From positions 121,352-185,351 of the forward strand of contig JBOFIJ010000006.1 in assembly GCA_051650105.1 (NCBI GenBank): a DNA stretch of 64,000 nt, read 5' to 3'. Origin of the DNA: Desulfovibrionaceae bacterium (GTDB taxonomy: Bacteria > Desulfobacterota > Desulfovibrionia > Desulfovibrionales > Desulfovibrionaceae). Made by a program: the position numbers and the translations under genes. Numbering within the stretch: position 1 is the stretch's first letter; every line of letters starts with the position of its first letter. This document shows, piece by piece, positions 54,930 to 61,033 of this stretch. Under the pieces are notes generated by a model. That model did not search any database. It was not told the DNA's origin and worked only from the letters and a program-made list of their open reading frames with translations.

Positions 54930-55403
54930 ATGAAAGAAATGCAAGAGCTCGTTCAAGATATAAAGTGTGTTTATCTTAGGGATGCACGTGCCCTGTATGG
55001 CGAAAATGGTTTATCGTGTGCTTCTGTGGGAGCAGCGGGTATGGATTTACGATCTTGTCTAGAAGGGGTTGTTGTTAATCCTTTCCAGCGTGTTTTGATC
55101 CCCTCTGGAATTAGTTTGGCTATCCCTTCTTGTCTTGTAGGGGCTGTTTATTCTCGTTCTGGGCTTGGTGCAAAATATGGTATTGTTGTCACACAGGGTG
55201 TGGGTCTTATTGATTCAGACTATAGGGGTGAAATTACTATACCCATCTATAATTTGTCTAGTGAAGCATATACGATTGAAAAAGGCGAAAGAATAGCACA
55301 AATTGTTTTCCATCCTTTCGTTCAAAGTACTATTGTTGTAGTGGATATGCTTTGTGAAACAGAACGAGGAGAGGGTGGTTTTGGGCATACTGGATTATTA
55401 TAA
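54930..55403 (+). CDS. dut: dUTP diphosphatase
   Basis: Motifs AAGMDLRS, RSGLGAKYGI, GLIDSDYRGEI and RGEGGFGHTG. Confidence 0.92.
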   Translation: MKEMQELVQDIKCVYLRDARALYGENGLSCASVGAAGMDLRSCLEGVVVNPFQRVLIPSGISLAIPSCLVGAVYSRSGLGAKYGIVVTQGVGLIDSDYRGEITIPIYNLSSEAYTIEKGERIAQIVFHPFVQSTIVVVDMLCETERGEGGFGHTGLL

Positions 55404-55502
55404 GAATTCTTTGGTTTTTAGTTAAGGTTTTCGTTGCTATTTCTATGTCTTTATGCAAGAATGCTGAGTAATTCTGTGCGTTTACTCTCCATGGAGGCAA
55501 TT

Positions 55503-56777
55503 ATGACTGTTTTTTCTTTTATCCATGCTGCAGATATACATTTGGACACTCCTTTTCGCAATATCTCTCAATCTCTTCCTGAGGAGTGCAAAAAAATGTT
55601 ATGCGGTGCTCCGGTGAAGGCTTTGCATAATATTGCTGATATTGCAGTGAATAAGGGTGTGGATTGTGTTATATTCGCTGGAGATATTTATAACGGAGTG
55701 GATAAAAGCATTGCTGGGCAATTAGAGCTTATTAATTTTGCAAAAATACTTGAAAAAGAGGATATTCCTTTCTTTATTGCACATGGGAATCATGATCCAT
55801 TTGTTAGTGATATACAAACGCTTTCTTATCCAGATAATACATTTGTATTTCCACCTATTCCTCATAGCAGATATTTGTACAATAAGAGCAATGAAGTTGT
55901 TGCAGTTATACATGGGATAAGCCATGAAGTGCAGCATGAAGAACGTAATTTAGCTGCTCTTTTTTCACCAGAAGAGACAAGCCTTTTTCAGATAGCTGTT
56001 TTGCATTGTACATTAGGGAATATTGATACTCGGTCAAAAATACAATATGCGCCGTGTTCCTTGGAAGGGCTTTTATCTTCAGGGATGCACTATTGGGCTC
56101 TTGGCCATGTACACACTAGGGATGTTTTGCACCAATATCCGCATGTTGTGTACCCTGGAAATACGCAGGGTTTACATTCTAATGAGAGAGGATTGCGTGG
56201 TGTGTACCACGTACACGTCGATAACGGTACGGTTACAATGGAATTTCATAACACAGCACCAGTTATTTTCAAGGATATTACATTAATTCTTGATGAAGAA
56301 GAAACTTGGAATTCGCTTTTAGAGAAGATAGAACCAGCTATGGAAGATGTGTTGCGAGCAGAATCTGTGGATAACGTTGAATTTTTTATTGTTACGTTGT
56401 CCCTGCAGGGTGCTTCATCCCTTAATTCTTTGTTAAGAGAGCAATCCTCTGAATTACAAGGAGTGTTTCAGAAAATACTTCCTACCTCATTTCCTGTGTG
56501 GATTCAGAATGTTGTGGTAGCTACTCAAGAATGTATTGATTTTGAAGAAATTATGCAGAGGCTTGATATTGTTGGTGAAACAAGCCGTATTGCAGAGGAA
56601 TTGCTAGTTAACGTTAAAGAACAAGAAAAGCTCATGGAGACAATAAAGAAAGAGCTTTTTTTTGCAAGAGGGCTAGCTAGAAATTCGTATTCTACGGATT
56701 TAATGGAGATTTCTATGAAGGATGTCATTCAGGAAGCACAAAGAGCATGTGTGTATCTCTTTGATGAGAGGAAATAG
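55503..56777 (+). CDS. Metallophosphoesterase, SbcD/YhaO-like DNA repair exonuclease
   Basis: Motifs HAADIHLD, AGDIYN, AHGNHD and LGHVH. A GGAGG Shine-Dalgarno lies 5 nt before ATG 55503, and the ORF-track start is 55434. Confidence 0.8.
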   Translation: MTVFSFIHAADIHLDTPFRNISQSLPEECKKMLCGAPVKALHNIADIAVNKGVDCVIFAGDIYNGVDKSIAGQLELINFAKILEKEDIPFFIAHGNHDPFVSDIQTLSYPDNTFVFPPIPHSRYLYNKSNEVVAVIHGISHEVQHEERNLAALFSPEETSLFQIAVLHCTLGNIDTRSKIQYAPCSLEGLLSSGMHYWALGHVHTRDVLHQYPHVVYPGNTQGLHSNERGLRGVYHVHVDNGTVTMEFHNTAPVIFKDITLILDEEETWNSLLEKIEPAMEDVLRAESVDNVEFFIVTLSLQGASSLNSLLREQSSELQGVFQKILPTSFPVWIQNVVVATQECIDFEEIMQRLDIVGETSRIAEELLVNVKEQEKLMETIKKELFFARGLARNSYSTDLMEISMKDVIQEAQRACVYLFDERK

Positions 56778-56779
56778 TT

Positions 56780-59700
56780 ATGTATATTAAAGAAGCTCGT
56801 ATAACACAGTTTGGTATTTTGGAAAGTCAGGAGATGTTGTCTCTTCCCAATTCTCTTATTGTTGTTCATGGTGTTAACGAAGCTGGTAAATCGACACTTC
56901 TCAATTTTTTCAGATGTATGGTTGCAGATATTCCGCAGAGAAAAGATAATGAGCACTATAGAACTATTCCTGGCATTGATCTTGGCTTTTCTGGGAAAAT
57001 CCGTGTTGTTCCAAGTTCTGTAGATAGTGCGTATCTTGAAATTTATAAAAAGTATGGTGCAGATTCAAGAAAAAAATCGGTAGTGACATTGAACGATTCT
57101 TTTGGGAAAAGCATAGATATGTCTTTGTGGAGACGTATGCTTGGAAGTGCTGCAGATATTGCTGTGTACAAGAATATGTTTGGGATTAGTTTGTCGGAGC
57201 TTGTTGCTGTTACCAAAGGAGATATTAAAGATGCTCTTTATGGCGCAAGTATCGCTATGAATGTGCGTTCTCCAAGAAAAGTCTTGGATCTTTTGGATAC
57301 AAAATCGAACGCATTATATAGGCCAAAGGGGCAAAATCAGGCCATTAATAAATTGCTTGTCGATCTTGCTCGTGTTGAAGAAGAGCGTTATGCATGTTTA
57401 GCGGTAATGGAGCAATATGAATCGTTACGAGTGCGTGCCAAGGCTTTATCTGAAGAAATATCTTCTTTGGATGAAGATAGAAAGTGTATTCAGGAACGTG
57501 TTACCGCGTATCAAAAGATTGAAAGTTCTTTTGAATCGTACAAATCTGCTGTTATTTTACTTGATGAAGTGAAGGATCTACCTGCATCTTCTCAGTGTAC
57601 AACTTCTTTGAAGGTAGAGTTTGAGCAATTATGCAGAGAAAAAGAGAATATTGAGGAGCAGTCTATAGGGCTTTTAAAGAAAAATAAAGGTCTTAATGAA
57701 GAGATAGTGCTGTTATCTGTTGATGAAAATATAGTAAAGAATGCGCATCAAATATATATTTTGTTAGAAAAAAAGTCGCAGTATCAATCTATGCAAGAGA
57801 ACTTACAAAAAATTAGAAAAAATACTGAAGTATTATACGAGAATATTGAAGATATTGTTATGGAATTAGGTGATGAATGGGATAATGAACGCATACAAAA
57901 AATTGACACAAGTTTTGCTGTAGATAAAGAGATAAGTAAAAGAGAGCAGTTATTACATGAACATGATGCTGGAGTAAACCATAAGACACAAAATTTGGAA
58001 GATATTCAAGGTAGGTGTAAAATTCTTGAAAGAGAATTATCTTGGAATGAGGAAGAGAACGAATGTGTAGTAGAGCTTCCTATGTTGGAAGAAAATATAG
58101 AAAAATTACAGGTAAAATATCAAGAGTATCAGTATAAAGAGAGAGAGAGAGCTTCTATTGAATCTGCTCTTGAACGAGAGGTTGCAATAATTTGCCCAGA
58201 ATGGAGTGTTGAAGAAGCTAAGAAATGTTCTCTTAGTGTTGAAGAGATAAGGGGTTTTCGTTCTCTTGCAGAAACGCATGCCCAATATGTTAAGAAATGG
58301 GATAATCTTAAAGAAAGAAGTAAGCGTTGTGAAATTAAATGTAGTAGTTACATTGAGGATCTTGAAAAAAATGCAGAATTACTCAATAAATATGAAGAAG
58401 GTAATACGACAAAGGATCTTGAAACAATATCTTCATTAGAAAATCTTATTTATGTGAGGGAGCAGATTTTCACTGCTCGTTATCTTTCTCGCAAAGTGTT
58501 ATATTGTACTTGGATTTCTCTTTTTATAATCGCTATATTTACGGGGTTATATTTTATTCATACTGGGGCCGTTATCTTTTCTTCAGTGATTGTTGGTTTT
58601 TCTTTGTTGGTTGGTCTTTTTTGTGCGTATTTTGTGTACAGCATTGAAAATTCTATTAAAAAGCATTTAGTATCTTTAGATATGCCAGAGGTGAGAAATA
58701 TTTCGCAATTGGAAAATGAGATTCTTATTTGTTCTGTTTGTCTTGGTTTAGAGGATGTTAAGAGAAGAACAGTGCAACAAAGAAAAATATTGCTTTTGGA
58801 AAATAAAGAAATAAATGATTATTATAAATTTTGTAAAAAACATGAAGCGACTCTTAAAGAATTATTGTTTAAGGAAAGGGAAGAGTATGCTATTCTTCTC
58901 GATAGTCTTAAAGACGAAGAAGCAAAGATGGACCAATTACAATATAGATGGAGATCGCATTTAGAAGCACTGCACATGCCAAGGTCTTTAGAGATATCGC
59001 CAGATGCATTTCAGAAGTTTTTTGAGAGTATGCAAAATATTACAAAGTGTATAAAGCAAAGTATTTTTGTTTATGAAGATTTAGCTCGCATACGGTTTGT
59101 GTGTAACGATGTAAAAAGAATTATAGAAGAGAGTACTTTGTATAGAAGCAGAGTTCATTTATTTACAGAAGATAATGGTGATTATGAGTATTTTTTTCAG
59201 GAAATGAAAAAATGTATAAAAAATCTTCAGGAAATTGCTAAAAATAGATGGGCTAAGGAAGAGGAATATAAAAAATTACTGTGTGAAATTGAAGTATTAG
59301 AAGAGGCTATTCCAGAGATCAAGAGAAAAGCATTGGTTGTTATAGAATGGAAGAAATGGCTTTTAGAGCAGGGCTATCCAGAGGATATTAACCCTGAAAT
59401 AGTGAGAGAATATATCAAGCAAATTCGTAAAATAAAAGAATATAATAAATCTTTGGAAAAGTTATCTAAAGAAGAACAAGAAACAAGATTTTTTCTAGAA
59501 AATTTTGAAGCAAAGTTGCAAAAGTATATTATAATGCTTCCCTATGGGCGCAGAGACAGTGTGGAATATAAGGATAGCCTTAGCCGTTTAGAGTATCTTT
59601 GTTTATATCTTAAAGAAGAAGAAGAAAAATATAGAAAAAGAGATGAATTATTGGGAAGGGAACAAGAACTTTCTAAAGAGATTGGAATTATTCAGGAACG

Positions 59701-60613
59701 TTTAGGAAGAATTGCTGAGAAAATACAAAATATTTTTCGCATAACAAAAACATCTTCAATAGAGGACGTGCGAAATGCTTTTGATATTTTTGAAAAATAT
59801 AATGAGAAGAGAGATCGTATAGAACAACTTCATCAAACAGTTAAAGGCATAGTGTATCCTCGTACGTTACAAGATGTTGAGGAATATTTTTCTTCATTCT
59901 CTTTAGAAGAATTGAGAGACCATATTCAAGAAGAGCTTAGGAAGATTGAACTTTTAGAAACACGGCGCGTCATTTTAGCCAAAGAATGTGGTATGTTAGA
60001 GAATCAGATTACACAGGCGGAGAAGGGTGGGATTAATATACACAATATGAATTATGCAATGCTTACCACAGAAATTGAAAAACACGTTAAGGAATGGATG
60101 CAGATGCGTGTTGCAAAAGAAATAATTATGAGGGCAAAACGACATCTTGAAGAACATAAACAGCCTTTTGTTATGGAGATAGCGAGTCTATTTATGAATG
60201 AAATTACGGATGGTTTTTGGAATCGTATTTTGCGTTCTACGGAGAATGATATTATTTTGTCTAATACTAAGGGTGCACGGAGTAATCCTGAATTGTTAAG
60301 TAGAGGTACTCAAGAGCAAGCGTACTGTGCTTTACGGCTTGCAGGAGCTTGTAACCATGCTACTATTACTAAAGAAAGTCTTCCTTTATTACTTGATGAT
60401 GTTACCGTTAATTTTGATTCACAGCGTGCACAAAAGATGGCAAAGTTACTGCTTTCTCTTGCGAGTGGGAGTTTGCCGAATATTCCACAGCATCAAATAT
60501 TTTTATTCACATGCCATGATAGTGTTGTGAATATGTTTAAAAATACTATTCCAGAAGCAAAATTTTTCTCTCTTAATTCTGGCGTTTTGAGTGTTTCAGA
60601 ATCTTTTGTATAA
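56780..60613 (+). CDS. YhaN/SbcC-like SMC-type AAA ATPase (1277 aa) with a central transmembrane hairpin
   Basis: N-terminal Walker A HGVNEAGKST. C-terminal signature-like LSRGTQEQAY and Walker B LPLLLDDVTVNFD. The long heptad-rich arms are interrupted at about 58497..58640 by two hydrophobic helices (VLYCTWISLFIIAIFTGLYFI-HTG-AVIFSSVIVGFSLLVGLFCAYFVY). The gene starts 3 nt after the nuclease gene. Confidence 0.8.
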   Translation: MYIKEARITQFGILESQEMLSLPNSLIVVHGVNEAGKSTLLNFFRCMVADIPQRKDNEHYRTIPGIDLGFSGKIRVVPSSVDSAYLEIYKKYGADSRKKSVVTLNDSFGKSIDMSLWRRMLGSAADIAVYKNMFGISLSELVAVTKGDIKDALYGASIAMNVRSPRKVLDLLDTKSNALYRPKGQNQAINKLLVDLARVEEERYACLAVMEQYESLRVRAKALSEEISSLDEDRKCIQERVTAYQKIESSFESYKSAVILLDEVKDLPASSQCTTSLKVEFEQLCREKENIEEQSIGLLKKNKGLNEEIVLLSVDENIVKNAHQIYILLEKKSQYQSMQENLQKIRKNTEVLYENIEDIVMELGDEWDNERIQKIDTSFAVDKEISKREQLLHEHDAGVNHKTQNLEDIQGRCKILERELSWNEEENECVVELPMLEENIEKLQVKYQEYQYKERERASIESALEREVAIICPEWSVEEAKKCSLSVEEIRGFRSLAETHAQYVKKWDNLKERSKRCEIKCSSYIEDLEKNAELLNKYEEGNTTKDLETISSLENLIYVREQIFTARYLSRKVLYCTWISLFIIAIFTGLYFIHTGAVIFSSVIVGFSLLVGLFCAYFVYSIENSIKKHLVSLDMPEVRNISQLENEILICSVCLGLEDVKRRTVQQRKILLLENKEINDYYKFCKKHEATLKELLFKEREEYAILLDSLKDEEAKMDQLQYRWRSHLEALHMPRSLEISPDAFQKFFESMQNITKCIKQSIFVYEDLARIRFVCNDVKRIIEESTLYRSRVHLFTEDNGDYEYFFQEMKKCIKNLQEIAKNRWAKEEEYKKLLCEIEVLEEAIPEIKRKALVVIEWKKWLLEQGYPEDINPEIVREYIKQIRKIKEYNKSLEKLSKEEQETRFFLENFEAKLQKYIIMLPYGRRDSVEYKDSLSRLEYLCLYLKEEEEKYRKRDELLGREQELSKEIGIIQERLGRIAEKIQNIFRITKTSSIEDVRNAFDIFEKYNEKRDRIEQLHQTVKGIVYPRTLQDVEEYFSSFSLEELRDHIQEELRKIELLETRRVILAKECGMLENQITQAEKGGINIHNMNYAMLTTEIEKHVKEWMQMRVAKEIIMRAKRHLEEHKQPFVMEIASLFMNEITDGFWNRILRSTENDIILSNTKGARSNPELLSRGTQEQAYCALRLAGACNHATITKESLPLLLDDVTVNFDSQRAQKMAKLLLSLASGSLPNIPQHQIFLFTCHDSVVNMFKNTIPEAKFFSLNSGVLSVSESFV

Positions 60614-61033
60614 CAAGTGCTATTGTATTTTTGTGGTTGTATTCTGTAGTTATTGTTTTTTGAAGGACCAGCTATACGGAGAATTTCTTATAAGAAAGAC
60701 ACTTAGGTATATTTATATAGCTATTTATTGGTGAAGATACATTGTTATTACAGTAAGATATTGTAGTATTTGTATAAAAGGATATAGTACTTGATATAAA
60801 CTCTTTTTATAAACTAGAGTTAGTAACTTGTTATTGTAATAGTGATAGGTATAGGTTATACTTTATCGTAGAATGTACAGTATATAGAAAAATGTATTAT
60901 GTATATGCACTATAGAAAATGAAGTGAAATACAGTACAAAGGTATGAGATATCTCTGTTTTTTACAGATATTCTATTGGACAATATTAGAGAAATAGTAT
61001 AAAATAACTGGCGATAGTCATTGCTGTGTATGG

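Follow-up and report, generated by a model that had tools for sequence, protein, structure and literature searches.

The window analysed here is a stretch of 64,000 nucleotides from a Desulfovibrionaceae genome (C6:121352-185351 of a 1.47-Mb assembly that is 96.7% complete). It carries an adjacent pair of genes for an Mre11/SbcD-family nuclease and a Rad50-type ATPase, which very probably encode a divergent but ordinary SbcF/SbcE (YhaO/YhaN)-type complex, a bacterial paralogue of Mre11-Rad50 and SbcCD, with a membrane anchor at the apex of the ATPase. Taken by itself, the locus supports the annotation of a nuclease-ATPase pair of the SbcF/SbcE (YhaO/YhaN) type, its membrane anchor being a prediction. 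The family is known but little studied, and in 117 of the 118 full-length proteins among the best 150 hits of a search with a profile of the N-terminal head (N-head), a membrane-type hairpin occupies the place where Rad50 has its hook. The two genes are:

55503..56777, + strand: SbcF/YhaO-like nuclease of the Mre11/SbcD family, 424 amino acids (aa); open reading frame (ORF) with its ATG at 55503 and a TAG ending at 56777
56780..60613, + strand: SbcE/YhaN-like Rad50-type ATPase, 1277 aa; ORF whose ATG is preceded by a purine-rich GAGAGG stretch

The anchor is predicted at the apex of the ATPase, where two long arms flank a pair of hydrophobic helices:

57377..58495, + strand: N-terminal arm (about aa 200-572), poor in Pro and Gly and 36% charged; helical where modelled
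58496..58558, + strand: hydrophobic helix 1 of the apex hairpin (aa 573-593, VLYCTWISLFIIAIFTGLYFI), from hydropathy and insertion energy
58559..58567, + strand: tight turn HTG (aa 594-596); AlphaFold2 (AF2) places a non-helical break at aa 596-599
58568..58645, + strand: hydrophobic helix 2 of the apex hairpin (aa 597-622, AVIFSSVIVGFSLLVGLFCAYFVYSI), from hydropathy, insertion energy and AF2
58646..59899, + strand: C-terminal arm (about aa 623-1040), 38% charged
58730..58741, + strand: CSVC (aa 651-654), the sole CxxC of the ATPase; not conserved and not a zinc hook

The apex (aa 573-622, nt 58496-58645) comprises 50 residues devoid of Asp, Glu, Lys and Arg, in a protein of which 31% consists of these four. 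In 20,000 shuffles the longest uncharged run averages 17 residues and at most reaches 42, so that none attains 50. The 19-residue Kyte-Doolittle mean peaks at 2.46 in the apex. On the Hessa biological scale, two separate 19-residue insertion-energy minima of -0.8 and -1.07 kcal/mol lie in the apex, while elsewhere the energy never drops below +7.6. The AF2 model of aa 451-750 (predicted local distance difference test score, pLDDT, of 82) forms a helix at 543-595, the break at 596-599 and a second helix at 600-632, followed by further helices at 641-655 and 662-730. The hairpin itself is modelled with a pLDDT of 70-87; the arm helix runs unbroken into the first hydrophobic helix, and the hairpin is thereby continuous with the arms. 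The two hydrophobic helices that a preliminary description of this DNA had placed at nt ~58497..58640 are confirmed, with the limits given above. Its statement that CxxC is absent fails literally, given the CSVC, and holds in the sense that there is no conserved hook CxxC: the motif sits 29 residues past the hairpin and is missing at that position in six of six aligned close relatives. CSVC was considered as a displaced zinc hook and rejected for this lack of conservation. The ATPase accordingly lacks the CxxC zinc hook that characterizes the coiled-coil apex of SbcC/Rad50 sensu stricto, and has instead a central hydrophobic domain between the arms, as in SbcE/YhaN.

The hairpin is a clade-wide design, typical of the family and not peculiar to this gene. 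A central hydrophobic span is found in 30 of 32 word-indexed homologues, mostly from Cohnella and other Firmicutes and some of them named YhaN, where it takes the form of a pair of hydrophobic stretches between relative positions 0.44 and 0.50. It is likewise found in all six complete partner ATPases (1269-1355 aa) encoded beside close homologues of the nuclease, and in all 61 complete ATPases from named genomes. The N-head profile search behind the 118 full-length proteins covered 1.84 billion representatives and returned 6,575 matches at E <= 1e-10, of which 1,875 cluster representatives pass E <= 1e-30, a count that takes in the whole AAA_27-like family. In the best of these matches the span, with a median length of 54 aa, occupies relative positions 0.43-0.52, and the overall range of the hairpin across relatives is 0.42-0.52. 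The named-genome loci come from Desulfovibrio piger ATCC 29098, Mailhella and Lawsonia metagenome-assembled genomes, Desulfobacterales and Planctomycetales; loci of Bilophila, Spirochaetota and Melainabacteria were also matched, with ATPases that are truncated or were not recovered, and stand outside the 61. The nuclease gene lies directly upstream of the ATPase gene in 56 of these 61 complete loci, and likewise on all seven contigs reached through nuclease homologues. The distribution of the predicted transmembrane hairpin in COG4717-type proteins, a check that the preliminary description had suggested, is near-universal in this clade by each of the three larger counts (30/32, 61/61 and 117/118).

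The head of the ATPase has the motifs of a Rad50-type split ATP-binding cassette (ABC):

56870..56896, + strand: Walker A / P-loop GVNEAGKST (aa 31-39); G31, N33, A35, G36, K37, S38 and T39 do not vary among 7 relatives
60296..60319, + strand: ABC signature-like LSRGTQEQ (aa 1173-1180); L1173, S1174, R1175, E1179 and Q1180 are invariant in aligned relatives
60386..60418, + strand: Walker B LLLDD (aa 1203-1207) and D-loop VNFD (aa 1210-1213), located in the sequence
60506..60517, + strand: H-loop FTCH (aa 1243-1246), invariant in relatives

The split head had already been recognized from GVNEAGKST, LSRGTQEQ and LLLDDV; all three motifs were located again, and VNFD and FTCH complete the set. At 60386-60400, LLLDD carries Asp in place of the catalytic Glu of Rad50 and SMC proteins. 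Six of seven aligned relatives have the DD pair, as do all 15 proteins from related genomes, and it is nearly universal in both of the AAA_27 types described below.

The N-terminal head (aa 1-202) matches the Pfam model AAA_27 (PF13514, YhaN AAA domain) at 4.2e-14, with 53.1 bits against a cut-off of 22, and SMC_N weakly at 1.5e-5. In a control set, the AAA_27 model at E <= 1e-9 also picks up a B. subtilis gene. The ATPase has no NCBIfam match; used as a single query it retrieved no related loci from genome contigs, and a single-sequence phmmer search against the PDB gave no relative; a profile of seven ATPase family members reaches the C-terminal lobe of Rad50 (3qku) in the PDB at 1.3e-6. The SbcC equivalog TIGR00618 has no match in the whole genome at E <= 0.001. 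Some homologues carry the source name YhaN, and the tie to B. subtilis YhaN is an indirect one, through Firmicutes proteins so named by JGI and UniRef. Together with the partner nuclease, which is Mre11/SbcD-like in sequence and fold, the AAA_27 match, the YhaN-named homologues and the missing TIGR00618 match bear out the earlier assignment to an SbcCD paralogue pair of the YhaO/YhaN (SbcF/SbcE) type.

The nuclease has the Mre11 fold, as modelled, and a complete set of metal ligands, as read from its sequence:

aa 11-15 DIHLD, aa 60-64 GDIYN, aa 95-98 GNHD, aa 167-170 LHCT and aa 201-204 GHVH, in the nuclease: metal-binding motifs, all intact

In an alignment of 25 homologues D11, H13, D61, N96, H97, H168, H202 and H204 are invariant. 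The protein matches Pfam Metallophos at 8e-10, has partial matches to the NCBIfam Mre11 and sbcd models, and in the PDB reaches P. furiosus Mre11 (1ii7) at 3.5e-8. Its AF2 model (pLDDT 86.9, predicted template modelling score 0.82) retrieves Mre11/SbcD structures as the top 50 of 50 Foldseek hits, at E about 5e-13 and with TM-scores up to 0.71. The five Mre11 motifs are thus set in a calcineurin-like phosphoesterase fold with a capping domain and C-terminal helices.

With E. coli SbcCD and the archaeal and eukaryotic Mre11-Rad50 complexes, the pair shares the nuclease fold and metal ligands (Foldseek matches with 4m0v, 6s6v and 1ii7 at E about 1e-12), the split ABC head with its signature, D-loop and H-loop, the antiparallel coiled-coil arms and the two-gene operon. 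It differs from them in having a hydrophobic two-helix hairpin at the apex where they have a CxxC zinc hook, DD rather than DE in Walker B, and no TIGR00618 match. The closer comparison is with B. subtilis, where YhaN was named SbcE and YhaO SbcF (Krishnamurthy et al. 2010, PMC2811018). SbcE was described there as having a 'unique central domain' with a hydrophobic first half, insoluble when expressed and lacking a CxxC; it binds YhaO (SbcF), has roles in double-strand-break repair and transformation, and accumulates at the poles of competent cells (PMC2811018). That paper does not call the central domain transmembrane and treats the family as Gram-positive (PMC2811018). A literature search yielded no later paper describing an SbcE-type domain as transmembrane, nor a relevant membrane-anchored SMC-like protein.

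The B. subtilis SbcE/SbcF pair (PF13514, COG4717) and the pair in the window both have an Mre11/SbcD-like gene directly upstream of a Rad50-like ATPase gene. Their ATPases share an N-terminal head matching the same Pfam model, deviant Walker motifs, long heptad arms, a hydrophobic central domain and the lack of a conserved CxxC. The window ATPase is longer, however (1277 aa against about 106 kDa for B. subtilis SbcE), and belongs to a Gram-negative Desulfovibrionaceae bacterium. It also differs in having no yhaM-like gene downstream, no hairpin proline and a weak AAA_27 score (53 bits).

The AAA_27 ATPases that accompany the nuclease in related genomes are of two kinds, type A with the hairpin and type B without it. 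Type A proteins, as extracted, are 1176-1476 aa long and score 53-90 bits with AAA_27. Type B proteins, from related Desulfovibrionales genomes (for example L028:2909-6397 on the + strand, L037:2250-5765 on the - strand and L133-L140), measure 1160-1250 aa, score 183-250 bits, and contain neither a hydrophobic segment (maximum Kyte-Doolittle mean 1.0-1.35) nor a CxxC; their soluble apex carries a conserved R..RD.GW motif. An in-plane amphipathic helix was not seen at the type B apex, where hydrophobic moments barely exceed the 95th percentile for the whole protein and the mean hydrophobicity is below zero. Type B resembles the window pair in its nuclease-ATPase gene pair, NEAGKS Walker A, DD Walker B and niche, and differs in its soluble apex and far stronger AAA_27 score. 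The hairpin is present in eight of eight and then ten of ten type A proteins from related genomes, and for 18 further proteins the AAA_27 score class predicts correctly in every case whether the hairpin is there.

A census of 101 genomes of the same taxonomic family counts 37 with type A, 14 with type B, none with both and 50 with neither. About five genomes with both would be expected under independence, and the chance of finding none is about 0.006 by a hand estimate that ignores phylogeny. This lack of co-occurrence suggests that the two types do the same job. A soluble-apex type that substitutes for the anchored one genome by genome amounts to a natural swap experiment.

A further Desulfovibrionaceae genome (L126, G114:C1:717200-721800) encodes a 1320-aa type A ATPase with the hairpin. 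In a 3.9-Mb genome (L009:7254-10378) the ATPase is read as two consecutive ORFs, the first of 722 aa and the second of 305 aa; the hairpin falls at 0.67-0.73 of the 722-aa ORF, and the gene has probably been split or frameshifted.

Whether the hairpin lies in the membrane or within a soluble structure can be weighed from how it varies. None of its alignment columns holds a conserved residue while hydrophobicity is kept, the pattern to be expected if an anchor faces lipid. Across 44 proteins the 15 residues on either side of it carry net charges of +1.95 and +1.23, where the background is -0.33, which fits the positive-inside rule and an in-in hairpin that would leave both arms cytoplasmic. The view that YhaN-type proteins are membrane-anchored, voiced as a belief in the preliminary description, is borne out to this extent as a prediction, with a hairpin position conserved clade-wide and net-positive flanks. 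The apex could alternatively be a buried soluble dimerisation element, two hairpins of which would build a cytoplasmic four-helix, hook-like joint. Many relatives have Ala/Gly-rich helices, which would pack tightly in such a joint, and the B. subtilis central domain is described merely as hydrophobic and insoluble, with SbcE-YFP foci on nucleoids (PMC2811018). The outer faces of a soluble bundle would have to be polar, however, whereas the apex has 50 uncharged residues and two segments, each 21 residues or longer, whose apparent insertion energy is negative. Hydrophobicity that outlasts sequence and the positively charged flanks also argue against a joint of this kind, as does a loop between the helices that varies from 3 to about 35 residues, and the soluble arrangement is unlikely.

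Several observations nevertheless weigh against a membrane-anchored SbcF/SbcE complex. Insertion into the membrane is predicted, from sequence and model. In B. subtilis, the foci of SbcE lie on nucleoids and membrane localisation is not described (PMC2811018). The flanks of the window ATPase are weakly basic, with a net charge of 0 over 15 residues on each side, and R/K at 570-572 and KK at 627-628 border its hairpin. There is no Pro in aa 573-622, and a proline is reported to be conserved in the B. subtilis central domain; many Firmicutes relatives have LPF or WPF at the hairpin turn, and the conserved proline is a minor trait of one sub-lineage. To judge from the sequence, the Walker B Asp in place of Glu may make ATP turnover slow or differently regulated. 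Finally, half of the related genomes are without the pair and 14% have the hairpin-less type instead, and the anchor is therefore not indispensable for the task of the complex.

For the membrane-anchored complex, the following mechanism can be proposed. Nuclease and ATPase would be co-translated, and their products would form a head like that of Mre11(2)-Rad50(2) (M2R2). ATP binding would shut the head on DNA ends or hairpins, which the nuclease would trim. The apex hairpin would insert into the inner membrane with both of its flanks in the cytoplasm, leaving the head to hang on the coiled coil some tens of nanometres below the membrane, so that DNA ends or hairpins would be processed near it. 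The membrane anchor, possibly with two hairpins pairing in the bilayer, would take over the joining of the arms from the zinc hook. Trimmed breaks would then feed RecN, an AddAB/RecBCD-like enzyme and RecA. As a more speculative extension, possible but rather doubtful, the membrane itself may replace the Rad50 zinc hook, each hairpin both tethering the machine and pairing with a second hairpin in the bilayer, and types A and B may be interchangeable solutions to arm joining. If this is true, lineages without SbcCD and SMC, like this one, would have no long-armed DNA-end machine besides the complex.

The genome itself carries RecN, two PDDEXK_1 ORFs of helicase-nuclease size and a ComEC-like ORF. 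It has no second AAA_27 protein, save for a weak match on RecN. Since no SbcC was detected, the pair is probably the sole Mre11-Rad50-type end-processing machine of this reduced 1.47-Mb Desulfovibrionaceae genome, which keeps the pair with neither SbcCD nor SMC detected. For SMC, neither the hinge PF06470 nor a real match to TIGR02168 (SMC_prok_B) was found in the genome, MukBEF and MksBEF not having been searched; in 24 genomes from its family and order, TIGR02168 has no match at E <= 1e-10 among the 18 candidates scored per genome.

This lack of SMC raises the possibility that, in an SMC-less lineage, the anchored SMC-like ATPase serves chiefly to tether or organise the chromosome at the membrane, with the nuclease in a secondary role. 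The long arms and the membrane anchor would suit such a tether, as would the absence of SMC hinge and SMC_prok_B matches from this genome and, within the search just described, of SMC_prok_B from the 24 relatives. The nuclease partner is strictly conserved, however, with its catalytic residues intact, and half of the equally SMC-less relatives live without the pair. The SMC search scored 18 candidates per genome, and MukBEF or MksBEF, which lay outside it, could supply the condensin function. A role chiefly as chromosome tether is accordingly very improbable.

The genomic setting bears on a third alternative, in which the pair would be an SMC-like defence system against phages or plasmids, comparable to Lamassu and Wadjet, and would sense or cut incoming DNA at the membrane. 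The pair is patchy in its family (51 of 101 genomes), its neighbourhood changes between relatives, and Rad50-like proteins are known to have given rise to defence systems (PMC12663957). The ATPase also diverges fast, being 29% identical to its same-genus copy where housekeeping genes are 52-70% identical. Low identity is usual for coiled coils, however, and AroE is similarly at 32%. No PADLOC-DB 2.0 family matches the nuclease or the ATPase below E = 0.05, and B. subtilis genetics indicate repair (PMC2811018). The pair is present in a single copy per genome, is kept in a reduced genome, and has dut, an HhH-GPD protein, envC-ctpA and plsX-fabH as neighbours, with no defence or mobile genes among them. 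The defence role raised in the preliminary description is unsupported by the PADLOC result and the housekeeping context, and is very unlikely. All three alternatives (soluble bundle, defence and chromosome tether) are less likely than a membrane-anchored SbcE/SbcF complex.

The divergence of the pair follows that of its genus. The nuclease is 42% identical to the same-genus copy; the identities of 52-70% are those of housekeeping genes on the same contig, and synteny is broken throughout. Accelerated evolution of the pair was considered and rejected, the genus being deep by the identities of its housekeeping genes and AroE; given that divergence and the broken synteny, neither the divergence nor the different location is special to the pair. 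More generally, the genes flanking the pair vary between relatives.

In the window, the surroundings of the pair agree with the earlier account, which had the two genes 2 nt apart and dut about 100 nt upstream on the same strand. Two nucleotides separate the nuclease stop (56777) from the ATPase ATG (56780), and dut ends at 55403 on the same strand, 99 nt ahead of the nuclease ATG. The nuclease gene is preceded by one further element:

55493..55497, + strand: GGAGG ribosome-binding site, 5 nt ahead of the nuclease ATG, read from the sequence

Further upstream, in addition to dut, lie ctpA, an M23 peptidase gene (envC-ctpA) and the HhH-GPD protein gene, and downstream plsX-fabH-fabG, all of them housekeeping genes. 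In bacteria rpmF is often found upstream of plsX. Here, the 420-nt AT-rich spacer between the ATPase stop and plsX (60614-61033) yielded no ORF, no rpmF and no Rfam match; it contains a promoter-like site at 60977-61005.

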